Shown one piece after another: positions 6,208-48,742 of a DNA stretch of 64,000 bases. Source of the DNA: Dehalococcoidia bacterium UBA6803 (GTDB lineage Bacteria > Chloroflexota > Dehalococcoidia > GIF9 > AB-539-J10); contig DKFF01000008.1 of assembly GCA_002452795.1 (NCBI GenBank), forward strand, positions 18,271 to 82,270, written 5' to 3'. Under the pieces are notes generated by a model. It was not told where the DNA came from. It saw only the letters and a program-made list of their open reading frames with translations, and did not search any database. Position numbers and translations under genes: made by a program. The first letter of the stretch is position 1; every line of letters starts with the position of its first letter.

Positions 6208-8127
6208 ATGACCCCTGAACCAAATCATAATGGCATCAATGGAGACTATAGCGCACAAAACATCCGCGTGCTGGACGGACTCGAAGCTGTCCGCCTACGG
6301 CCCGGCATGTATATCGGCGATACGGGCAAAGACGGCCTGCACCATCTGGTCTATGAAATAGTCTACAACAGCATCGATGAGGCCATGGCCGGCTACTGCA
6401 ACCGTATACAGGTCATCATCAATGCAGATAACTCCGTAACCGTGACCGATAACGGACGCGGCATCCCGGTGGACATCCATCCGGAAAAGGGCGTCTCGGC
6501 CCTGGAACTGGTCATGACCACGCTGCACGCCGGCGGTAAATTCGGCGACGGCGCTTACAGCGTTTCCTCCGGTCTGCACGGCGTCGGCGCCTCGGTCGTC
6601 AATGCCCTTTCCAAATGGATGAGGTCCGAGATCAAGCGTGACGGTAAAATATGGCGCCAGGAATACAAGGTCGGTGTGCAACAGGGCGAGGTCAAGGCCA
6701 TAGGTAAAACTACCGAGACCGGGACTACCCAGACCTTCATGGCCGATGACGAAATTTTCGGTGAGATCGATTATGATTTCAACGTGTTGGCCGAACGCCT
6801 CAGGGAGCTGGCCTTCCTCAACAAGGGCACCGAGATCAGCTTGCGGGATGAAAGGTCAGATAAGGAGGTAACCTATTTCTTCGAGGGCGGCATCGCCAGC
6901 CTGATACGCCGTATCAACAAAAACAGGCAGGTACTGGATAAACCGATCTATATCTCCGGAAGCGTCAACAGCACGGCAGTTGAAGTGGCCATCCAGTACA
7001 ACGACGGCTATTCGGAAAACGTCACTGCTTTCGCCAACTGTGTCAACACCAAGGAGGGCGGCACCCACCTGACCGGTTTCAGGGCTGCTCTGACCCGCGT
7101 GTTAAACGATTATGCACGCAAGAACAAATTCCTCAAGGATAGCGATCCCAACCTGTCCGGCGATGATGTCCGCGACGGGCTGACGGCAGTGGTCAGCGTC
7201 AAGGTGGGCTCACCCCAGTTCGAGGGCCAGACCAAGGCCAAGCTGGGCAATCCAGAGGTTAAAGGCCAGGTAGAAACGATCACCAACGACGGGCTGAACG
7301 AGTACCTGGAAAAACATCCTGAGGAAGGCAAGTCGATTATCGACAAATGCCTGCTGGCCGCCAAAGCCAGGGAAGCGGCGCGCAAAGCGCGCGACCTTAT
7401 ACTCAAGAAAACCGGACTTGAGTTCGGCACGTTGCCGGGCAAGCTGGCCGACTGTGCCAGCAACAACCCCAGGGACTGCGAGTTATACCTGGTAGAAGGC
7501 GATTCAGCCGGCGGATCGGCCAAGCAGGGCCGCGACCGCAATTTCCAGGCCATCCTCCCGCTGCGCGGCAAGATCCTGAACGTGGAAAAGGCTGCCAAGG
7601 ATAAGATCTTCGACCATGAAGAAATACGCGCTCTGATCACTGCGCTGGGTACGGGAATTGGCGAAGCCTATGATTACTCCAAGCTGCGCTACCACCAGAT
7701 CATAATTATGACCGATGCGGATGTTGATGGCGCACATATCCGCACGCTGCTTTTAACTTTCTTCTACCGCAACATGGCCGACCTGATCCAGAACGGCCAC
7801 CTGTTCATCGCCCAACCACCCCTCTACCGTCTGGCCGCCGGCAAACAGCAGTACTGGGTATACTCGGACGCCGAGAAGGATGCCAAGCTCAGCGCCATGA
7901 AGAGCAGCAAGGTGGACGTTCAGCGTTACAAGGGCCTTGGCGAGATGAGCCCGGAGCAGTTGTGGGATACAACGATGAACCCGGCCACAAGAACGTTGCT
8001 CAAAGTGCAGGTCGACGATGCTATGAAGGCCGATGAGATCTTCCATATACTGATGGGCAATGAAGTGCCGCCGCGCAAGTCATTTATCCAGGCCCATGCC
8101 CGCTCCGTTAAAAATCTGGATATATAG
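6208..8127 (+). CDS. gyrB: DNA gyrase subunit B
   Basis: 639 aa; GHKD ATPase, TOPRIM (EGDSAGGS) and C-terminal motifs all present. Confidence 0.95.
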   Translation: MTPEPNHNGINGDYSAQNIRVLDGLEAVRLRPGMYIGDTGKDGLHHLVYEIVYNSIDEAMAGYCNRIQVIINADNSVTVTDNGRGIPVDIHPEKGVSALELVMTTLHAGGKFGDGAYSVSSGLHGVGASVVNALSKWMRSEIKRDGKIWRQEYKVGVQQGEVKAIGKTTETGTTQTFMADDEIFGEIDYDFNVLAERLRELAFLNKGTEISLRDERSDKEVTYFFEGGIASLIRRINKNRQVLDKPIYISGSVNSTAVEVAIQYNDGYSENVTAFANCVNTKEGGTHLTGFRAALTRVLNDYARKNKFLKDSDPNLSGDDVRDGLTAVVSVKVGSPQFEGQTKAKLGNPEVKGQVETITNDGLNEYLEKHPEEGKSIIDKCLLAAKAREAARKARDLILKKTGLEFGTLPGKLADCASNNPRDCELYLVEGDSAGGSAKQGRDRNFQAILPLRGKILNVEKAAKDKIFDHEEIRALITALGTGIGEAYDYSKLRYHQIIIMTDADVDGAHIRTLLLTFFYRNMADLIQNGHLFIAQPPLYRLAAGKQQYWVYSDAEKDAKLSAMKSSKVDVQRYKGLGEMSPEQLWDTTMNPATRTLLKVQVDDAMKADEIFHILMGNEVPPRKSFIQAHARSVKNLDI

Positions 8128-8206
8128 GCAGCTTTACCGGCCAGTTGCGCATGGGATACCCCTCACCATAACGTATTGACCTGATCGGCTTATGTCAATA
8201 CCGGGA

Positions 8207-8812
8207 TTATGACGGTAAATAAAGCCCCTTAACCCTTATATACTGCTCCACCTCTTCCGGGACGAAATAACGTATGGATTTCCCCCCCGCTATGTTAGCC
8301 CTGATCTCGCTGGAGCTTATATCGATAAAAGGTTTTTCCAGGATAACCATACGTTCTTTGATCCCGGGTATGGCAGATTCCAGCGCTCCCATATCCGGTT
8401 TTGTGAAACCCGGCCGCGGAAATGATACCAATCGCGCCATTTTGGTAATCCGGTAAGGCTCTTTCCAGAACGGCACCGTGGCAAGGCTGTCCCAACCCAG
8501 CAACAGGTATAGATCCGTATTAACGCCGACCTCCCGCGCCAAAGCGTCCAGGGTATCCACGGTGTAGGAGGGACCTTTACGGTCGACCTCAACAGTCGAG
8601 ATGGTAAAGGATGGATTTGAATTGATAGCCAGCCTGACCATGGCCACCCTGTGCTCTGCCGGTGTGATCTGCCGGTCTGATTTCATCCACGGTTCTCCAA
8701 CAGGGATGAAGACCACCATTTCCAGACCAAACTCCACCCTTGCCTGCTCAGCAATGATCAGGTGGGCCAGATGCACAGGATCGAAAGTGCCACCCATTAA
8801 GCCGACTCTCAT
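8207..8812 (-). CDS. nadD: nicotinate-nucleotide adenylyltransferase
   Basis: 201 aa; GGTFDPVHLAHL N-terminal signature. Confidence 0.85.
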   Translation of the reverse strand: MRVGLMGGTFDPVHLAHLIIAEQARVEFGLEMVVFIPVGEPWMKSDRQITPAEHRVAMVRLAINSNPSFTISTVEVDRKGPSYTVDTLDALAREVGVNTDLYLLLGWDSLATVPFWKEPYRITKMARLVSFPRPGFTKPDMGALESAIPGIKERMVILEKPFIDISSSEIRANIAGGKSIRYFVPEEVEQYIRVKGLYLPS

Positions 8813-9874
8813 TCAAGCCTGCCTGTCCACCGGCCTGGGCCGGAAGATAATTTCGGGCGCTGGCTCTTCACTTTGCATGACGCCAGCATCCGTGACCATT
8901 TTGTGCACTGTCGCGACCAAATCTTTTAGCCCCGACTCCCCTATGGCCGATACCTGGAACAGTCTGACGCCCTCCACAGCCAGTTTTTCCGTTAAATTAG
9001 ACAAAGCTGTGTTATCTACGGTCTCATCCATTTTATTCGCCGCCACAACATACTTTTTACCGGCAAACTCCTGGTTGAATTCCTTCACTTCCTCCTTCAA
9101 GCAGGCCAGGTCTTCTTCTATCTGTTGCGAAGTGGCATCCAGCAGATAGACAAGAACAGCGGCCCTGGAAAGATGCCTGAGAAACCGCGAGCCGATCCCT
9201 TTTCCCTTGCGCGAACCCTCAATAATAGCCGGCATTTCTGCCCACACATACCTATTTCGCCCGTCGTCAACTGTTCCCATGACAGGTTCCTGCGTGGTGA
9301 AAAAATAATCCGCAGCCTTCGGTTTTGCTCCGGATATGGCTGAGAGAAGTGTGGATTTTCCGCTGTTCGGCATGCCTATGATACCCACATCGACCGGCAG
9401 GGAAATCTGAAGCTCTACATCAATTCGTTCTCCTTCTTCACCACTTTGAAATTCCCGCGGCGCCTTGTGCGTCGCTGTGGCAAAATGCACATTGCCTTTG
9501 CCTCCTCTGCCCCCCTTTGCAATCATTACCCTTTGACCATTAATCCTGAAATCCGCTTTTTGCACTAACTCACCGTTCTTCCTGACATAAGCTATAGTCC
9601 CGACGGGTATCTTTATACAAAGATCCGATCCATTCAAACCATGCATCTTATTCTTACCGCCCGGACCGCCATTTTCTGCTTTATAGAACAGTTTATGTTT
9701 AAAAGACGCCAGATCTTTAAGATCGATACTTGCCTCTAAAAATACATTTCCTCCCCGTCCTCCATCACCGCCATCCGGCCCTCCAAAAGGCAGGAATTTC
9801 TCCCTCCTGAAACTGGCCAGACCATTGCCGCCAGTACCTGCTTTCACAACTATTTCTACATTATCAACAAACAT
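8813..9874 (-). CDS. obg: GTPase Obg
   Basis: 353 aa; Obg fold glycine-rich N-terminus (GGNGLASFRREKF..GGPDGGDGGRGG) plus GTPase G1-G4 motifs. Confidence 0.9.
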   Translation of the reverse strand: MFVDNVEIVVKAGTGGNGLASFRREKFLPFGGPDGGDGGRGGNVFLEASIDLKDLASFKHKLFYKAENGGPGGKNKMHGLNGSDLCIKIPVGTIAYVRKNGELVQKADFRINGQRVMIAKGGRGGKGNVHFATATHKAPREFQSGEEGERIDVELQISLPVDVGIIGMPNSGKSTLLSAISGAKPKAADYFFTTQEPVMGTVDDGRNRYVWAEMPAIIEGSRKGKGIGSRFLRHLSRAAVLVYLLDATSQQIEEDLACLKEEVKEFNQEFAGKKYVVAANKMDETVDNTALSNLTEKLAVEGVRLFQVSAIGESGLKDLVATVHKMVTDAGVMQSEEPAPEIIFRPRPVDRQA

Positions 9875-10058
9875 ATTTATACTAATTATTTATGTTAATG
9901 CATTGTAGATATATATAATAATAGCAATATTAAGCACGTTAATCCTGGTGAAGGAGGTAAAAATAACTTTAGAAATGGCATAGATAGTGAGATAAAAAGT
10001 GTAAAAAAATCCGAAGTTATCCACAAAACCGCATGATTTATCCACAAGGATATAGATA
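9875..10058. other. candidate oriC: AT-rich tract plus two perfect DnaA boxes (TTATCCACA at 10017-10025 and 10038-10046)
   Basis: Intergenic region between obg start and dnaA stop; 55-bp A+T-rich stretch (9875-9930) followed by two same-orientation consensus DnaA boxes 12 bp apart. Confidence 0.45.
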
Positions 10059-11423
10059 TCAATGAGTCTTTTGGGATGCTTTAAGCAGATCGCGGATATC
10101 TTCTATAGATTTGCTCAGTTGCGAATCCACAATTATTTCAGAAGAGATCTTTTCGCAGCCGTGGATGACAGTAGAATGATCTCGATTACCCAGGACCTTG
10201 CCAATCTCAGAGAGGTTACATTGGTTTTGCTGCCGCAGAAGATACATGACGATATGGCGGGCGCGCGAAGTCTTCAAGTCTCTCTTTTTGCCTGTAATAT
10301 CATCGGGTGAAATGGAGTAATAGTTTGCTACCGCATTGATAACAGCGGAAGGCTGGAAATAACCTACATTCTGTTTGGAGACATTGATCATATCGCCCAG
10401 AAGCTGTTTCGCTATATTCACGTCAAGCGTGTAACCGTTGAGTCGGGCATAAGTTGCCAGCCTGAGAAGCGCACCTTCCAACTCCCTGACACTGTGATAA
10501 AAATGCGTGGCAAGGAAGTTCAATACGGCAATGTCCAAGTTTATACGCAGTTGTTGCGTTTTCAACTCGAGTATGGCAAGGCGGGTCTTGTGATCAGGAG
10601 GATAGATATCAGCTACCAATCCGCCTTCCAGCCTGGAGCGAAGACGTTCGTTAAGAGAAGCGATCTCTTTAGGCGGCCTATCCGATGTAATGACGACCTG
10701 ACGGCTGTCAGCCAGGTAATCGTTAAGAATATGGAAAAGGCATTCCTGGGTCTGAGTTTTGCAGCTTAAAAACTGGATGTCGTCCACCAGTAATACATCG
10801 AGATTACTGAACCTGTTTCTAAACTCTTCGTTTTTATGGTTTCTGATCGAGTTGATGAACTCATTGGTAAACTGCTCTGCGCTTATGTAAAGAACATTGA
10901 GGTCAAGGGACCTGGAAGCGTGTCCGATGGCATGCAGAAGATGTGTTTTGCCGGTGCCTGTTGCACCATATATATAGAGAGGATTAAAAGCCTCTCCAGG
11001 ATTGCCGGAGATCTCCATGGCTGCAGTAAAAGGAAGACGATTACAATCGCCCGCGATGAATGTACTGAAAGTATATTTATTGCTGAGGTTGGATGATTTG
11101 AGCAGGGGCTCACCTTCCTTCAAGCTGATGCCGCCATCGTGTATACTATGTGCTTTTTGCATACAGGTATTGTGCGAGACAGCCTGGACCTGGAACTGAA
11201 CCTCTACGTTTTGACCAGTGATGGAGCAGAGTATCCTGCTTACTATTGAATAAAGCCTGCTTTTCAACCACTCGGCAATGAACGTACTGGGGACGGCTAC
11301 GGTGAAAACGCCATTGGAGTAATCAATGCCCTTGGTATCTTTAAGCCATGTGTTGAAATTAGCTTTATTAACTTGAAGCTGCAGCTCACCGAGAGCCGCC
11401 TGCCAGATTTTATCAGCTTGCAT
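10059..11423 (-). CDS. dnaA: chromosomal replication initiator protein DnaA
   Basis: 454 aa; AAA+ Walker A GATGTGKTHLLHAIG, DnaA domain IV C-terminus. Confidence 0.95.
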   Translation of the reverse strand: MQADKIWQAALGELQLQVNKANFNTWLKDTKGIDYSNGVFTVAVPSTFIAEWLKSRLYSIVSRILCSITGQNVEVQFQVQAVSHNTCMQKAHSIHDGGISLKEGEPLLKSSNLSNKYTFSTFIAGDCNRLPFTAAMEISGNPGEAFNPLYIYGATGTGKTHLLHAIGHASRSLDLNVLYISAEQFTNEFINSIRNHKNEEFRNRFSNLDVLLVDDIQFLSCKTQTQECLFHILNDYLADSRQVVITSDRPPKEIASLNERLRSRLEGGLVADIYPPDHKTRLAILELKTQQLRINLDIAVLNFLATHFYHSVRELEGALLRLATYARLNGYTLDVNIAKQLLGDMINVSKQNVGYFQPSAVINAVANYYSISPDDITGKKRDLKTSRARHIVMYLLRQQNQCNLSEIGKVLGNRDHSTVIHGCEKISSEIIVDSQLSKSIEDIRDLLKASQKTH

Positions 11424-11663
11424 CCGTACCTAATCCATAATATAAATTTTTCACGGGCGCCAAAAAAGGGTAAAAAATCTCTCCTGGGAATTAAAGACGC
11501 AGACTTTTAACTTAATTAATAAAAGATTAGATTTAGCGTCTGCTGATTGTCTTCCGTGGCACCCCTCCCGAGAACAATGAATAGATTACCACAGCGGTCA
11601 TTTGGGCTGTCAATAGTTATTTTGACATAATGGGAAAAAATCTATAAATTTTACTTCGGTACG

Positions 11664-12599
11664 ATGCGCATCATATTTATGGGTTCAGCAACGTTCGCAA
11701 CGCCCTCCTTACAATCACTTATGTCAAACAAATACGACATAAGCGCTGTTTATACACAGCCCGATAAAAAGACCGGGCGCGGGCAGCAGTTAATGGCCAG
11801 TGCGGTCAAGCGGTATGCGCTTTCGCAGGGATTGAAAGTGATACAGCCGGAGACCTTCAAAGATCCTGCCGAAGTGGAAAACTTGAGGGCACTGAAGCCC
11901 GACCTGATCGTAGTAGCAGCCTATGGGCAGATCCTGCCTGAATCAGTTTTACAAATACCTGTATATAAGTGTATCAATATCCATCCCTCCCTGCTGCCCA
12001 GGTACAGGGGCCCTTCCCCTATAAGCGCGGCCATATTGAACGGAGATAATGTTACGGGGGTGACGATCATGCTGGTGGAGAAGAAAGTGGATAGCGGTCC
12101 TGTACTGGCGCAGAAAGAAACTAAAATTGCAGATGAAGATACAACGGAGACGCTGACGGAAAAATTGGCCTTACTGGGGGCAGCGATGTTAATCGAAGTG
12201 ATACCGGGCTGGATTGAGGGTAAAATACAGCCGAAGCCGCAGGATGAAAGCCGCGCCAGCCATACTAGAATGGCAAGCAAAGAAGACGGCAGGCTGAACT
12301 GGGAGCTCCCGGCAATTCAATTGTGGCGCATGGTCAGGGCTTATTACCCCTGGCCTGGTTGCTTTACAATCTGGAACAATGCCAGGTTGAAGGTGATCAG
12401 CGCGGTGCCTCTGTCGGGTACTGCTGGCGGGAAGGCCGGTGAAGTAATCGAGCTGCCGCGTGGCGCACCGGCGCGGGCGGCTGTACGAACAGGAAAGGGT
12501 TTGCTCGGCCTGGTAAAGGTGCAGTTTGAAGGAAAAAAAGAGATGCCGGTTGCAGATTTCGTGGCAGGCCACCGGGATTTTATCGGCTCAGTTCTTTGA
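11664..12599 (+). CDS. fmt: methionyl-tRNA formyltransferase
   Basis: 311 aa; MRIIFMGS ... formyltransferase N- and C-domains. Confidence 0.9.
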   Translation: MRIIFMGSATFATPSLQSLMSNKYDISAVYTQPDKKTGRGQQLMASAVKRYALSQGLKVIQPETFKDPAEVENLRALKPDLIVVAAYGQILPESVLQIPVYKCINIHPSLLPRYRGPSPISAAILNGDNVTGVTIMLVEKKVDSGPVLAQKETKIADEDTTETLTEKLALLGAAMLIEVIPGWIEGKIQPKPQDESRASHTRMASKEDGRLNWELPAIQLWRMVRAYYPWPGCFTIWNNARLKVISAVPLSGTAGGKAGEVIELPRGAPARAAVRTGKGLLGLVKVQFEGKKEMPVADFVAGHRDFIGSVL

Positions 12600-42585: not shown

Positions 42586-42639
42586 AAGCCACTTATAATG
42601 AAGGCAAATTAATGATGCCATCGTGGCGCTTGGCGGGCG

Positions 42640-43779
42640 TTAAGTTTTTATCCCGACGGTGATTTCTGTGCCTTTGCCCGGTTGCGATTTTATGGAGAAG
42701 GTGCCGCCGAGCAAGCGGGCTCGCTCCTGCATGCCGATCAGTCCCAGCTTGCCTTTGCTGGCAAATCCACCTGCCACTTCAGGCACCTTGAATCCTCTGC
42801 CGTTGTCGGCAATGGTCAAGTTGACTTTATCGGGAGCAAACTCGACCTTAACCAGTACCTCCGTTGCCATGGCATGTTTCCTGACGTTGCGCAGTGCTTC
42901 CTGGGCGATGCGGAATAAGGCCAGTTCGATCTCCGGTGGCAGGCGATAACTAGAACCGGTTGTCTCAAAACGTGTATTAATCTCTTTTTCTTCATTGTGA
43001 AATTTGTTTGTTAGGTTTACCAAAATTGGCGTTAGTCCCAGTTGGTCCAAGTCACCAGGGCGAAGTTCTTGTGCAAAGAAGCGAGCTTTTTTTGCTGTAT
43101 TGTTGATATTGCTTTGGAGTTGTTCCAATTGGGAAAAGATTTTCTCCGGTGCAAACTCTCTGTTTCCGATTAGCATGTCGATCTTCAAAGATATGGTTGT
43201 CAATTCTTGGAGGAAGGTGTCGTGTAACTCGCGAGCAATATACTTCCTTTCCCCCTCTTGGGCGCGGGTGATTTCTGCGAGGTAGAATTGCATATTCTCC
43301 TGCCTTTGTCGCTGCTCGGTTATATCTCTGGCTGTAGTCATAATGCCTATTATTTGCTCATTTTTCTTTATCAAAGAGGGTGCGGACTCGGTGATCATTT
43401 TTTCGCCGTTCTTTCTGAAGATCTCATATTCGTAGTAGCATTGCTTAATGCACCGATCCCTAAGCCATTTCTGTTGCTCTTTCATGAGGGATTCAAAGCT
43501 TTTCGGGGAGAGAAGGCGTGATACGTGTAGCCCGACCAGTTCTTCGGCCGTATTGTAGCCGAAGAGATCTACTGCTCGTTGGTTGACTGCAAGAATCATT
43601 CCCTCAAGGGTGCGAATGAAAATGACATAATTGGTTTGAGTGAAAATGCTTGAGTAGAGAGCCTTCGTAGTCGTGAGGAGCTTGCTCTTTCTTTGTAGTT
43701 CTTTCTGGAGGTGAAATATTTCTACAAGAGCCCTCTTTTTGCTGATTCTCCTGTTGGGTTTGAAAAAGTTAGTCCTCAT
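42640..43779 (-). CDS. cytoplasmic PAS-domain sensor histidine kinase (HisKA_3 / NarX-type)
   Basis: 379 aa; no TM segments; PAS region, H-box ARELHDTFLQ, HATPase_c with DNGRGF and G-box. Confidence 0.8.
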   Translation of the reverse strand: MRTNFFKPNRRISKKRALVEIFHLQKELQRKSKLLTTTKALYSSIFTQTNYVIFIRTLEGMILAVNQRAVDLFGYNTAEELVGLHVSRLLSPKSFESLMKEQQKWLRDRCIKQCYYEYEIFRKNGEKMITESAPSLIKKNEQIIGIMTTARDITEQRQRQENMQFYLAEITRAQEGERKYIARELHDTFLQELTTISLKIDMLIGNREFAPEKIFSQLEQLQSNINNTAKKARFFAQELRPGDLDQLGLTPILVNLTNKFHNEEKEINTRFETTGSSYRLPPEIELALFRIAQEALRNVRKHAMATEVLVKVEFAPDKVNLTIADNGRGFKVPEVAGGFASKGKLGLIGMQERARLLGGTFSIKSQPGKGTEITVGIKT

Positions 43780-44449
43780 GTTCGGTTACTTTAAAAATAT
43801 CGTCGAGTGCCAGCCAATTTTCTTTTAAGGCGTAAAGCACAGCCTCGGTGCGAGATCCGACTTTTAATTTTTTGAAAGTGTTTACCATGTGAGTTTGAAC
43901 AGTGCGTTCACTGATCACAAACTCCTCGGCGATTTCCCTGTTGGTTAACCCGCCACCTGCCAGTTTAAGTATTTCTAACTCGCGTGGAGACAATATCACG
44001 GATTTTTGTCCGGTTTTGGTAGCATTAACCACTAACTGATGTACGATTTGGCTGGCGGATTGAAAAGAAAACACCGCTTCTCCTGCATACACCATGCGGA
44101 TGGCATCGGTTAGCTTATTTATAGGAGAATTCTTTAACAAATATCCTGCTACTCCCGCCTCTAAAGAAGCTGAAATATATGACGCGTAGTTATAAGCGGT
44201 GAGTATGATGATAGCTGTCCTCGGACAAAATATTTTAATCTGCCGGGCGGCTTCGATGCCGCCAACGACAGGCATAGAAACATCGAGGATGACCACATCT
44301 GGCAACAGCTCCGTTGTTAAGCTGATTGCTTCTTCGGCAGTGGTTGTCTTTGCTACTATAAGTAAGTCCGCCTCTTTTTCTAGAAGAAGAGACAGTCCTT
44401 CTAAGACCAAAGTGTGGTCATCCGCTAAGAGAACTTTAATTTTCTCCAT
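43769..44449 (-). CDS. NarL/LuxR-family response regulator
   Basis: Start MEKIKVLLADDH (ATG 44447-44449, AAGGGG RBS); receiver domain plus LuxR HTH; overlaps the kinase gene by 11 nt. Confidence 0.8.
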   Translation of the reverse strand: MEKIKVLLADDHTLVLEGLSLLLEKEADLLIVAKTTTAEEAISLTTELLPDVVILDVSMPVVGGIEAARQIKIFCPRTAIIILTAYNYASYISASLEAGVAGYLLKNSPINKLTDAIRMVYAGEAVFSFQSASQIVHQLVVNATKTGQKSVILSPRELEILKLAGGGLTNREIAEEFVISERTVQTHMVNTFKKLKVGSRTEAVLYALKENWLALDDIFKVTEHED

Positions 44450-45015
44450 AATCAAGCCCCTTTTTGCTGAAGAATATGAACAAACTTTGCGGGAGGTTAA
44501 GTCTATTTCCATTGTAACATATGTTGTTTGAAGGTTTGCCTTCGAGTCGTTTGTGACGTCCAATTGTTAATTTATGCTTTGTATAGGGCAAGGTAGTGCC
44601 AGAAGGGGAGGGTGTTAATGCTACTGCTTGTTCAGGTTATGCGTGGACACAAGAGTTGATAGAGGCAGTGACCGAATGTGAGGTAGGGGAGGCCTTGGGC
44701 GAAGCATATGCTTCTCATGGCATGATATCGGTTGGTATATTATCATGGGGGATGCCAATCTGGCTGTGTTTAATTTATCTGTATTTGTTATGAGGTTGTA
44801 TGTATCGTGGTAAGTAGTTTTCTGGAGGTGGAAATACGTAGTTTGTCTGATATGAAGATTGTATTTGAGAGGATATACTTAAGTTGCTAATAAGAGGTGG
44901 TATCTGCGGGCGGTTATTTGGGTTATAAGAGATTTGGGCCCGGAGAGGAAACTGAAGATGTGTTGTGCATTTGAGTCGAGAGAATTTTAACGTAGAGAAG
45001 TTAAAGGAGGTAAAA

Positions 45016-47628
45016 ATGGCAACAGCAGTGGAAAAAATAATGAAAATGAACGAGAAAGAGGAAGGGAAGGAGTATTTACTGGACCCGGAGGAGGCGGGGG
45101 TAAAGCTGGATACCCCAGGTGAACCTACAAGTAAGGCATGGGCAGTTGTTACTCCGGAGATGTGGAAATTCAGGTTCTCAGTCGCAGACAAGATACAAGT
45201 TGATGAGCCGGATTATTTCGCTGATAAGGATGCCTATACAGATATGGGGCCGTTCATGGCAATGAAGGAAGCCTGTGACGAGAATCCGGAGGCTACAGTT
45301 GCGCGTATAGTTGCTGTGGCATTCGCAAAATCTCTTGACCGTCAACGTCTGCCAATTAGGCCATACGAGATGGTCATTGGCTTGTATTCCAGTGATGAGC
45401 ACGGCATGCCGGGAGATCCGCAAAAGCAGAACTGGCAGCAATTGGTGGCGAACTTTAAGAACGCGCCGGAAAGGATGATGTACTGGAAAGGTGACGAAAA
45501 AGTCAGGCTTTCCAAACAGGAGATGGATGAGCTCACAGCAAAGATAGGCAATAAATTTAATGCAGTGTCAAGAGTTGTTGGCAAACTGACGCCTGAAGAG
45601 CAGCACCTGTACTTTTGTCCTGAAGCTCCCGGGAGATACTTTGAAGCGTTTGGCTCTGTACAGCGTGCCAGTGCCGACCATGGCTGGTATATGAGGCTGG
45701 GCTGGAGAAAACTGGTAGAGATGAAGAAGGAGAAGCTGGGGGAGTACGAGAAGGAATTTGAGCGTGTCAAATTAGCTGAGCCACTTGACTATCACAAGAC
45801 TGATGAGATACAGGACAGGATTGATAACGCTAAAGCTAGCATCCTGGTTGGTGAGGCGGTCATCAGGTGGATAAAGAGGTGGGCAGAGGCAGCGAGGAAA
45901 GCTGCCCCTCAGATGCCCGACGAGAAGTCAAAATGGATAGCCGAACAGGCAGCAGCGAATTGTGATTGGGTCGCGGAGAACGCGCCCCGCACCTTCTGGG
46001 AAGCCGTGCAGATGTTCTGGCTTAGCTATTGTGTTTTTCGTGGTTTAGAATCCTGCCACCCTGGTGCATTCAAGCCGGATGATCTTTTATGGGAATGGTA
46101 TGAACGCGACGTGGTAAAAGAGAAAACGCTGGACAGGACTACAGCGGGCGAGATAATAGCTTGTTGGGCAGCTAAGTACCACGAAACGGCCGGATTTGGG
46201 CCTGCGAGGTTTGGTGGCTTGGGCAAGTCAGCTCAGGGAACCAGAGACTATACGGTCTGGACGATTGGTGGGCAGGATGGGCATGGTTGTGACGCCACGA
46301 ATGAGCTTACTCGTTTAATCCTGGATGTCTGGGACGGATACAGACTTCATTTTCCCGACCTTAAATTCAGATGGCACCCTGCGACTAAAAGGGACGATTT
46401 TAGAAGAGTCGTTGAGGTAGCCAGAACAGGATTGGGGCTTCCCTCTCTGCGGAACGATCCAATGGCCATTGAGACTCTTTTGAGCCAGTATCCGGGAGAG
46501 TTGACCCTGGAGCAGGCGAGACAGTGGGGAATCGTAGGCTGCAATACGCCGGGATGTATTGTTGATTCCAAAGGGCCTGTCAGGCGGGAGGTTTCTTATG
46601 CGGACATTGAGAAGGCGCCGGAATTCGCGCTCTTCAATGGCAGAGACCCGGAGCCGGGGTTCGAGTGGGTTAAGTCGATAGAGACCGGAGACCCCACCAA
46701 GTTTAAGGATTTTGAGGAGTTTTACCAGGCCTGGCTCAGGCAGTATGAATGGTTCGTGACCATGGAACTCAGGTACCGAAACAGGTTTCTTGAGGAACTG
46801 GAAAAGACAAACAAAATGCCGTTTGTAAGCCTTCTGTATAAATGCTGCATGGAATCAGGGCTGGATGCGCTTCAAGACCCTGCCATAGCAAGATTTAGTT
46901 TTCAGAGCATAGTCGGCTGGGTGGATTCGATAGATAGCCTCATAGGGGTGAAATACTGGGTTTACGATAAGAAGAAGTACACTATGGAGCAACTCCTGAA
47001 GGCATTGAAAGCTGACTGGGTAGGCTATGAGGACATGAGGCGGGATTTCCGGAACGCGCCCAAGTTCGGGAACGATGATGACTATGCCGATGAAATAATG
47101 GCAAGGGCAACCGACGACGTCTTTATAGTGCACAAGACAAAGACTCTGGACAGGAGAGGTTACCCGGTCTACCCCAATCAGCTTCCCGTAAGCCGTATGT
47201 TTCAGTCTGCTCCCATGGTAGGGGCATTGCCTAACGGGAGAAAGCGCGGTGACCAGCTGTGTGATGGAGGGATTAACCCTCATGCCGATTTTGATAAAGC
47301 CGGGCTCTGGGGAAGGATGAGGTCAGCCCTAAAGGTTGATCAAGGTAAAGCCAGGGCGTACATTTACAATCAGAGGGTTGATTATTCCTCGGTGGCAGGT
47401 GAGGTTGGTCTGGCTAAGTTTGCGGATTATTGCTGGGACAGCCTTGCGCAGGGGCAGACTCAGATGCAGTTCAACTTTGTCTCGACTGAAGTGTTGCGGG
47501 ATGCGCAGAAGAGTCCGGAGAAATATCCCTATCTTACGGTAAGGGTATCCGGCTATAATGCCTTCTTTACCGGGCTGCCTGTCTTTATGCAGAATGCGGT
47601 GGCAAGCCGCGTAGAGCAGAAATTGTAG
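45016..47628 (+). CDS. glycyl radical enzyme, uncharacterized subfamily (870 aa)
   Basis: ATG at 45016 with AAGGAGG RBS; C-terminal glycyl-radical motif RVSGYNAFF; Cys loop VGCNTPGCIV; PFL-fold conserved blocks throughout. Confidence 0.85.
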   Translation: MATAVEKIMKMNEKEEGKEYLLDPEEAGVKLDTPGEPTSKAWAVVTPEMWKFRFSVADKIQVDEPDYFADKDAYTDMGPFMAMKEACDENPEATVARIVAVAFAKSLDRQRLPIRPYEMVIGLYSSDEHGMPGDPQKQNWQQLVANFKNAPERMMYWKGDEKVRLSKQEMDELTAKIGNKFNAVSRVVGKLTPEEQHLYFCPEAPGRYFEAFGSVQRASADHGWYMRLGWRKLVEMKKEKLGEYEKEFERVKLAEPLDYHKTDEIQDRIDNAKASILVGEAVIRWIKRWAEAARKAAPQMPDEKSKWIAEQAAANCDWVAENAPRTFWEAVQMFWLSYCVFRGLESCHPGAFKPDDLLWEWYERDVVKEKTLDRTTAGEIIACWAAKYHETAGFGPARFGGLGKSAQGTRDYTVWTIGGQDGHGCDATNELTRLILDVWDGYRLHFPDLKFRWHPATKRDDFRRVVEVARTGLGLPSLRNDPMAIETLLSQYPGELTLEQARQWGIVGCNTPGCIVDSKGPVRREVSYADIEKAPEFALFNGRDPEPGFEWVKSIETGDPTKFKDFEEFYQAWLRQYEWFVTMELRYRNRFLEELEKTNKMPFVSLLYKCCMESGLDALQDPAIARFSFQSIVGWVDSIDSLIGVKYWVYDKKKYTMEQLLKALKADWVGYEDMRRDFRNAPKFGNDDDYADEIMARATDDVFIVHKTKTLDRRGYPVYPNQLPVSRMFQSAPMVGALPNGRKRGDQLCDGGINPHADFDKAGLWGRMRSALKVDQGKARAYIYNQRVDYSSVAGEVGLAKFADYCWDSLAQGQTQMQFNFVSTEVLRDAQKSPEKYPYLTVRVSGYNAFFTGLPVFMQNAVASRVEQKL

Positions 47629-47672
47629 CATCTCGCAGAGATAAGCGAGGGAGACTACCGCAACGAGAGTTG

Positions 47673-47712
47673 GCCGGTGTGGCGATCTCCGGTCGGGGGT
47701 TGCCACACCGGC
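47673..47712 (+). promoter_or_regulatory. intercistronic stem-loop between the GRE and its activase (GGCCGGTGTGGC ... GCCACACCGGC)
   Basis: 11-12-bp near-perfect inverted repeat with 18-nt loop; no U-tract; AAGGAGG RBS for the activase follows. Confidence 0.3.
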
Positions 47713-47755
47713 TCTGTGTAGCGGTGAGTATTTATGTAAAGGAGGTTGTCTGCTT

Positions 47756-48682
47756 ATGTCGATTGAGGCAATAATTAAGACTGTAGATGAGCATGCGGTT
47801 CATGATGGCCCGGGGGCGAGGGCGCTTGCTTTCATAAAGGGTTGCAACTTGCATTGTAAATGGTGTCAGAATCCGGAGCTCATAAAGTTTGAGCCCCAGA
47901 TATGGTTCCATAAAGCGTTTTGCAAAGGATGTGGTGTATGCGAAGCGGCATGTCCTGTTAAGGCTATTGATTTAAATGCAGACGCCATGCACAGAATTGA
48001 TAGAGAGAAGTGCCTGGGAATTGAATGCAGCAAGTGTGTTCGGGTATGTTCGTATAATGCATTGCAGACGGTTGGTGTTAAGATCACTGCCGAGGAACTC
48101 TGGAGGTGGCTGGCGAAGTATAAAAGTTTTTATCAGGGTTCAGGGGGAGGGATAACGCTCAGTGGCGGAGATCCTTTACATTCGCCGGATTTCTCGGCTG
48201 AGGTACTTGAGCTTTGTAAAAGGGACAATATACATACGGCTATTGAAACGAGTTTATATGCCAGTTACGACAATTTGTGGAAGGTGGCGAGGCACTGCGA
48301 CCTTATTCTGTGTGATATTAAGCACATGGACAGCAAAAAGCATAAAGAGGGGACGGGTGTATCCAACGAACTGATTCTTGAGAATCTTCAGCGGCTTAAT
48401 GCGGATTTTCCTGGCGAAATCGTGGTGCGGGTGCCACTGATTCCCGGATACAATGACGACGAAGAGAACATTCGCCAAACAGCGGAGTTTCTTTCTCCAC
48501 TGGAACGGGTAAAAGGGATAGACCTGTTGCCCTTCAATAATTTCCCCGTGACGAAATTCGAGGCGCTTGGTATAGACTGGGAGTATACGAACGTTCTCAG
48601 TCAAACGGACGAGCAGTTGAACAAGCTTCATGAAATAGTGAAACCTTATAAAGCTCATTGCACGGTAGGGGGGATGTGGTAG
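47756..48682 (+). CDS. glycyl radical enzyme activating enzyme (radical SAM, with two auxiliary ferredoxin-like [4Fe-4S] motifs)
   Basis: 308 aa; CNLHCKWC radical SAM motif; CKGCGVCEAACP and CLGIECSKCVRVC insert typical of non-PflA-type activases. Confidence 0.85.
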   Translation: MSIEAIIKTVDEHAVHDGPGARALAFIKGCNLHCKWCQNPELIKFEPQIWFHKAFCKGCGVCEAACPVKAIDLNADAMHRIDREKCLGIECSKCVRVCSYNALQTVGVKITAEELWRWLAKYKSFYQGSGGGITLSGGDPLHSPDFSAEVLELCKRDNIHTAIETSLYASYDNLWKVARHCDLILCDIKHMDSKKHKEGTGVSNELILENLQRLNADFPGEIVVRVPLIPGYNDDEENIRQTAEFLSPLERVKGIDLLPFNNFPVTKFEALGIDWEYTNVLSQTDEQLNKLHEIVKPYKAHCTVGGMW

Positions 48683-48742
48683 GCATTACGATTGTCTGAC
48701 AAATCGGATAACTGCTTTTCAGAGGTTCTCTTCCGTGCAGGA

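Follow-up and report, generated by a model that had tools for sequence, protein, structure and literature searches.

The window analysed here, a stretch of 64,000 nucleotides from Dehalococcoidia bacterium UBA6803 (GenBank assembly GCA_002452795.1, contig DKFF01000008.1, positions 18,271 to 82,270 of the forward strand), encodes a soluble sensor histidine kinase and a NarL-type response regulator, which lie divergently from an operon for a glycyl radical enzyme (GRE) and its activating enzyme. We consider it likely that this two-component pair is a dedicated local regulator of the GRE-activase operon. The pair is tied to the GRE by comparative evidence: the two operons are inherited together, they have been lost together from related contigs, other regulators take the same position beside the GRE in other lineages, and paralogous regulator-kinase pairs are habitually placed divergently from enzyme operons. 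The combined proposal of a dedicated local switch that responds to the substrate or product of the GRE is the one we favour on balance; taken by itself, the part that concerns the signal, i.e. that the pair senses a GRE substrate or product and not some general cue of redox or energy state, is more tentative and is held with slightly less than even confidence. A sequence-only reading of the same DNA had already described the pair, and its coordinates, domain calls and divergent orientation from the GRE were all correct on re-examination. The four genes concerned are:

42640 to 43779, minus strand: soluble sensor histidine kinase of 379 amino acids, with an N-terminal helix, one PAS domain, a HisKA_3 domain with H186, and HATPase_c
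43769 to 44449, minus strand: NarL-type response regulator of 226 amino acids, with a REC domain (D10, D11, D56) and a GerE/LuxR helix-turn-helix
45016 to 47628, plus strand: GRE, the presumed regulatory target, with PFL-like (4.6e-97) and Gly_radical (8e-18) matches
47756 to 48682, plus strand: GRE-activating radical SAM enzyme (activase), matching TIGR02494 with 314 bits against a cut-off of 174

The regulator and kinase genes overlap by 11 nt, the kinase start preceding the regulator stop, which indicates a single operon led by the regulator gene. The overlap, together with a pairing that is kept at every locus seen, also supports a partnership of the two proteins. This operon diverges from the GRE-activase operon (45016-48682, plus strand) across a spacer of 566 nt (44450-45015), and the resulting four-gene module is flanked by an isochorismatase gene and a PGI gene, both converging on it.

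Co-inheritance, co-loss and displacement of the regulators

A kinase homologue search over 5.8 billion proteins gave 5299 matches, the best 120 of which were examined. Within this set, only two full-length relatives exceed 60% identity, namely P0122 (80%; locus L055) and P0123 (70%; locus L003), after which identities fall to 50% or less and the matching proteins are mostly longer. Both are encoded in the same kinase-regulator / GRE layout as the window kinase; with the window included, this layout is held at 3/3 orthologous loci (kinase identity 70-100%). In L055, the N-terminus of the GRE is 84%, the regulator 83% and the kinase 80% identical to the window proteins. The best genomic match, L003, comes from a metagenome-assembled genome (MAG) labelled Dehalococcoidia, and here the corresponding values are 91% for the GRE, 86% for the activase, 79% for the regulator and 70% for the kinase. 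L003 is also the only other locus with readable flanks, which encode SurE and an MFS transporter and are unrelated to the isochorismatase and PGI genes of the window; the four genes have thus stayed together while their surroundings changed. The named relatives of the kinase belong to the Chloroflexota or Dehalococcoidia, bar one labelled Acidobacteria. The kinase itself was found on 14 contigs.

The module is missing from two independently assembled contigs, L089 and L090, that share the flanking genes of the window at 89-99% protein identity and in the same order (S4, rpoA, L17, truA, L13, S9 and isochorismatase, then PGI, PMM, MetK and AdoHcy hydrolase). Between isochorismatase and PGI (L089 7602-8705, syntenic with window 42586-48742), they encode only a HisKA_3 plus HATPase fragment of 234 amino acids, which is 57% identical to residues 138-379 of the window kinase. 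The junction in L090 contains no run of N, so that the missing segment is not a gap of assembly or scaffolding. Since the approximately 5.3 kb absent from these contigs take in the PAS half of the kinase along with the whole regulator, GRE and activase genes, the regulator-kinase/GRE-activase module is, on sequence comparison, accessory and lost as a unit. The leftover kinase fragment is itself intact-looking and far more diverged than its flanking genes, and may represent either fast decay or a different allele.

Elsewhere, GRE orthologues at 66-82% identity have other regulator types directly upstream. In L001/L056 (Peptococcaceae) and L004 (Spirochaetales), this is a divergent sigma-54 activator with PrpR_N, PAS, AAA+ and HTH_8 domains, and the GRE is preceded by canonical sigma-54 promoters (TGGCAT-N5-TTGCA or TGGCAC-N5-TTGCA, i.e. 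TGGCAY-N5-TTGCA). The same promoter type is found before the GRE in L085 and L002 and is absent upstream of the GRE in the window and in L003. An IclR regulator lies beside the GRE orthologue in L057 and L061, and a GntR/FCD regulator in L063. A GRE cassette with a lineage-specific regulator at the same position is the usual signature of local pathway-specific control. The GRE-activase pair is common to contigs assigned to several phyla at 75-91% identity, and the named relatives of the regulator are almost all from the Chloroflexota. The GRE is probably a horizontal acquisition that later came under the control of a paralogue from a native family of regulators.

This regulator family has a consistent habit of gene placement. 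Eight paralogues of the kinase (44-50% identity) were examined and the regulators of seven of them compared (47-59%). The regulator gene comes first in 8/8 paralogous loci and, in the 7/7 loci with a readable upstream region, an operon of enzyme or stress genes runs divergently from the pair. The genes faced by the paralogous pairs are:

L077: an old-yellow-enzyme gene
L078: a MasD-like GRE (756 bits to MasD)
L080: a molybdopterin oxidoreductase
L081: Usp/HSP20 genes
L086: solute-binding proteins and MmgE/PrpD
L087: a corrinoid protein with CobW and URO-D
L088: NuoE/F-like genes

Among the paralogues, identity is lowest in the PAS domain (32-43%), higher in the transmitter (49-57%) and highest in the regulator helix-turn-helix (57-76%), a gradient that is as expected if the paralogues differ mainly in the signal that they sense. 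At locus L078 (1-7503), the GRE is truly MasD-like, of the alkylsuccinate-synthase type, and is followed by small cysteine-rich open reading frames (58 and 136 amino acids), two PNPOx-like proteins and an activase.

The kinase, the regulator, the spacer and the GRE

Pfam matches of the kinase cover PAS_9 (1e-11, residues 53-155), HisKA_3 (PF07730; 2.1e-12, residues 177-244) and HATPase_c (PF02518; 7.7e-14, residues 285-377). No membrane segment is predicted, because the highest Kyte-Doolittle mean over 19 residues is only 1.13. The AlphaFold model (mean pLDDT 88.6) is likewise without a hydrophobic helix and runs from a long N-terminal helix (10-48) through the PAS core (52-152) and a continuous helix into DHp (154-205) to the catalytic domain; Pfam, hydropathy and model together bear out the soluble kinase with PAS and HisKA_3 domains of the sequence-only reading. 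H186, which lies within an E-L-H-D motif, D187, N298, D325, G327 and G329 are invariant across 60 homologues; G346 is invariant as well, and the N/G boxes are complete. The nearest solved relatives by sequence are VraS and DesK.

The regulator, also confirmed as a NarL-type protein, matches Response_reg (PF00072; 7e-24) and GerE (PF00196; 3e-19), and the acidic-pocket and phospho-acceptor residues D10, D11 and D56 can be read from its sequence. Its nearest NCBIfam models are MctR, MadR and NarL, every one scoring below its equivalog cut-off, and its nearest solved relatives are VraR, NarL and DesR. The start at 44449 is backed by an AAGGGG ribosome-binding site; a longer version starting with TTG at 44563 was rejected, as a 1-nt indel just upstream of the 44449 start in L055 breaks the longer frame. 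To judge by the ELHD histidine, the N/G boxes and the combination of receiver and GerE domains, the pair is of the HisKA_3 kinase / NarL-family regulator class and, with the catalytic and phospho-acceptor residues complete and a confidently predicted kinase model, it looks functional.

The input domain is less informative. Among the PAS cysteines of the kinase, C109 alone is kept in all three orthologues and C113 is found only in the window kinase, and no haem or flavin motif was recognised in this domain. The PAS domain has no significant similarity to those of the sigma-54 activators beside GRE orthologues (E above 0.8), and a Foldseek search with it returned generic PAS-kinases (LOV chimeras, WalK) and no informative ligand-binding neighbour. 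The kinases of L077, L078, L081 and L083 (4/5 aligned paralogues) carry an extra N-terminal region of approximately 100-130 amino acids with several hydrophobic helices, from which the window kinase, both of its orthologues and L080 are free. Because most aligned paralogues carry this region, the soluble kinase may have arisen by truncation within a membrane-anchored family.

The spacer was compared in a three-locus alignment (window, L003 and L055). Its candidate −10 elements and palindrome are sequence readings without statistical support. The features, in order along the window, are:

44450 to 44590, no strand assigned: block A, alignable, the leader/promoter region of the regulator-kinase operon, three-locus identity 75-83%
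44519 to 44511, minus strand: candidate extended −10 for the regulator operon, TGTTACAAT, read by eye with no tool; L003 has TGCTAAAAT
44591 to 44809, no strand assigned: variable middle, unalignable with L055 and missing from L003
44810 to 45015, plus strand: block B, alignable, GRE promoter and leader
44832 to 44844: candidate imperfect palindrome AAATACGTAGTTT, its centre some 48 nt upstream from the inferred start; perfect AATACGTATT in L055
44874 to 44879, plus strand: candidate GRE −10, TATACT (TATAAT in L003, TAGAAT in L055), with no good −35
45003 to 45010, plus strand: GRE ribosome-binding site AAAGGAGG

From its position, the palindrome would suit an activator. The sequence-only reading had suggested a search for regulator-binding repeats in 44452-45015; this was run, and no repeat could be demonstrated, the search of the 566-nt spacer giving just short two-copy matches and a few small palindromes. 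Positionally conserved inverted repeats in the spacer alignment amount to one weak site, in the regulator leader, and a generic promoter/terminator scan gave counts at chance level. An Rfam scan for riboswitches or leader RNAs found no match down to E=1, and the three-sequence consensus fold is weak (−13 kcal/mol) with almost no covariation. An open reading frame of 65 amino acids in the middle of the spacer (44596-44793) was rejected as a gene, the region being missing from L003. The claim that the pair is positioned to control the GRE operon is supported by comparison (co-inheritance at 3/3 loci, co-loss in two contigs and displacement by other regulators elsewhere).

The GRE itself scores below every NCBIfam equivalog cut-off. 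Among solved structures, it matches MasD (336 bits) and TutD (275 bits) best, although its identity to them is low. In the alignment, its cysteine loop GCNTPG falls opposite ACMSP and LCMSPG and lacks a Glu at the second position after the Cys. R524, which does not vary among 26 homologues, corresponds to TutD R508, which we take to be the fumarate-binding Arg of that enzyme. The GRE looks less like a member of the dehydratase/lyase group than like the X-succinate (fumarate-adding) synthases, but the interval separating it from the activase holds no small-subunit genes.

GRE orthologues (75-82%) are repeatedly linked to genes for a TRAP transporter, DctPQM (L001, L004, L057, L059, L060, L064 and L084), and some of the orthologue loci (L057, L084, L004, L002 and L058) also encode an MmgE/PrpD protein, a DUF4125 protein or a PNPOx-like protein. 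Genes for class I fumarase and malic enzyme are found in L002 and probably also in L004 and L060. These linkages are a hint that the GRE uses a substrate or co-substrate of the dicarboxylate type; none of the linked genes, from TRAP to malic enzyme, adjoins the GRE of the window. Among L005-L029 (Desulfobacteraceae, Geobacteraceae and MAGs labelled 'Pseudomonadales'), some MAGs hold many GRE-family paralogues that are 45-55% identical, with three in tandem in L006 and at least eight contigs each from the isolates CSMAG_3047 and binchicken_co357_64.

The wider surroundings of the module are a core region, with a ribosomal-protein/rpoA cluster, metK and dnaA. A replication origin probably lies inside the window, at about 8000-12000, because dnaA (10059-11423, minus strand) and gyrB (6208-8127, plus strand) are found there and the cumulative GC skew passes through a minimum near 10 kb.

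A model for the switch and its rivals

In the proposed model, an intracellular signal would act via the single PAS domain of the kinase, the likeliest candidate being a small molecule tied to GRE catalysis, whether its substrate or, following the example of the TdiSR system discussed below, its product. Substrate-induced expression of the GRE, as suggested by the sequence-only reading, is plausible on this view. The kinase would autophosphorylate on H186 and the phosphate would be transferred to D56 of the NarL-type regulator, a dimer of which would bind in the 566-nt spacer and activate the sigma-70-type GRE promoter (with a −10 and no good −35). The regulator probably also acts on its own operon (autoregulation). 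Domains, catalytic residues, operon structure, co-inheritance, co-loss and the exchange of regulators between lineages were observed; we infer that phosphate is transferred, where the regulator binds, that it activates and does not repress, and what the signal is.

Several observations weigh against this reading. There are just three orthologous loci, which are fairly closely related, and the adjacency of the two operons is partly a matter of shared ancestry. The spacer blocks, at 75-83% identity, are no better kept than four-fold degenerate sites (0.66-0.78), so that their conservation alone is no evidence of function. The palindrome AAATACGTATTT is not enriched, with 2 matches in the window against 1.8 expected, and a search for an inverted repeat common to ten regulator-proximal spacers from orthologous and paralogous loci (eight independent groups) gave nothing above shuffled sequences. 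The recognition helices of the paralogous regulators are nearly identical, which allows cross-regulation or further targets, and neither the sequence nor the fold of the PAS domain points to a ligand.

It is conceivable, and in our view unlikely, that the pair controls the GRE while its PAS domain reports a general state (redox poise, anoxia or energy), thereby gating an oxygen-sensitive radical enzyme. The same architecture is known from NreB/NreC of Staphylococcus, in which a soluble PAS-HisKA_3-HATPase oxygen sensor acts with the NarL-type NreC, and some paralogous pairs face redox or energy operons (NuoE/F-like genes and molybdoenzymes). In the Dehalococcoidia, indirect sensing via redox-sensitive cell components is an open possibility for the soluble kinases linked to reductive dehalogenase (rdh) genes (PMC13390414; PMC7755780). 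A generic sensor is, however, not expected to vanish with one accessory operon, and the PAS domain is the most divergent part between paralogues that lie beside different enzymes. Nor does the window kinase have an NreB-type set of four cysteines, C109 being the only one conserved, or a recognised haem or flavin motif. That the pair is a passenger, regulating other genes or itself and merely sharing an accessory segment with the GRE, is very unlikely. The small number of loci and the failure to demonstrate an operator leave room for it, as do the near-identical recognition helices, through which distant targets could be reached; but the divergent promoter-to-promoter layout is kept where the flanks are not, the genes were lost together in L089/L090, and unrelated regulators occupy the equivalent position elsewhere, with matching sigma-54 promoters in the case of the sigma-54 activators.

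We regard it as highly improbable that the pair is a specific relative of the rdh-linked two-component pairs RdhS/RdhP that has been re-used for the GRE. General features are common to both (a soluble kinase, a pair beside a catabolic gene and the class Dehalococcoidia), but no rdhA gene adjoins the pair in the window, none of the ten sampled loci with the window kinase, its orthologues or close paralogues contains one, and the best 120 of the 5299 kinase matches include no protein named as Dehalococcoides. No dehalogenase gene was seen in the open reading frame list of the window, not every frame of which was scanned against Pfam. RdhS/RdhP are, moreover, only 27-36% identical between genera (PMC13390414), so that they form no defined sequence family, and a literature search turned up no statement that the regulators linked to rdh genes belong to the HisKA_3/NarL (LuxR) class.

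With a dedicated switch for the GRE-activase operon as the preferred reading, a bolder and rather doubtful extension can be formulated: the PAS kinase would specifically bind, inside the cell, the substrate or a succinate-type adduct product of a horizontally spread X-succinate-synthase-like GRE without small-subunit genes, which has been wired, lineage by lineage, to a sigma-54 activator, an IclR or GntR regulator or a NarL-type pair. If this were true, ligand binding to the PAS domain, taken together with that to the regulators from other lineages, would lead directly to the GRE substrate, and the Chloroflexota regulator family, also found beside the MasD-like GRE of L078, would mark pathways of anaerobic radical C-H activation in the phylum. 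The two-component system is ordinary in kind, being one more NarL-family pair next to catabolic genes. In practice, it offers a handle on the GRE that it probably controls and that matches no characterised enzyme: the soluble PAS sensor can be expressed for ligand screens, and the regulator with its promoter can serve as a reporter. The comparison also shows clearly how a single enzyme cassette, probably shared by horizontal transfer, can come under four regulator types that are unrelated to each other, and it documents presence/absence variation of a whole module between contigs with the same flanking genes.

How the pair compares with described systems

Among proteins of solved structure, those closest to the window pair come from the DesK/DesR, VraS/VraR and NarX/NarL systems, with which the same phosphotransfer chemistry is shared. 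DesK, VraS and NarX are membrane sensors, whereas the window kinase is soluble with a cytoplasmic PAS input. NreB/NreC has a domain order identical to that of the window pair. NreB ligates an iron-sulfur cluster through four PAS cysteines; the window kinase, in contrast, keeps one PAS cysteine (C109) among the three orthologues, and an NreB-type four-cysteine iron-sulfur sensor was therefore excluded. The paralogous Chloroflexota pairs (L077, L078, L080, L081, L086, L087 and L088) have the same gene order and divergent placement as the window pair, but differ in the neighbouring enzymes and in their PAS domains, which are only 32-43% identical.

Soluble kinases beside rdh genes have been documented in Dehalococcoides and Dehalogenimonas (PMC1183210; PMC13390414). 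Compared by their published descriptions, RdhS/RdhP resemble the window pair in having a soluble kinase, in lying beside a catabolic gene, in belonging to the class Dehalococcoidia and in the proposal of an intracellular cue; the difference is that the window pair adjoins a GRE-activase operon and an isochorismatase gene, not rdhA/rdhB. The sequence-only reading had called the kinase 'rdh-type'. The architecture of a soluble kinase beside a catabolic gene agrees with this name, whereas a sequence relationship does not follow, and, given the ten loci without rdhA and the low identity among RdhS/RdhP themselves, we treat the term as a loose architectural analogy and not as membership.

A closer functional precedent, and the best studied, is TdiSR (TutC1B1), which is found in Thauera, Azoarcus and Aromatoleum and regulates benzylsuccinate synthase. 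It consists of a PAS kinase and a NarL/FixJ regulator that are co-transcribed, lie divergently from the bss GRE operon and are induced by the product, benzylsuccinate, making up a pathway-specific inducer system (PMC5874301). The window, L003 and L055 likewise each combine a single-transmitter PAS kinase and a helix-turn-helix regulator with a divergent GRE operon, and the window GRE is nearest, among solved structures, to the X-succinate synthases MasD/TutD. Two differences stand against a closer equation: TdiS has two tandem PAS domains and the window kinase one, and the window pair belongs, by its nearest solved relatives, to the HisKA_3 / VraSR-DesKR-NarXL class, in a host of another phylum. 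By analogy, the window pair would thus be TdiSR-like in its working rather than an established member of that system.

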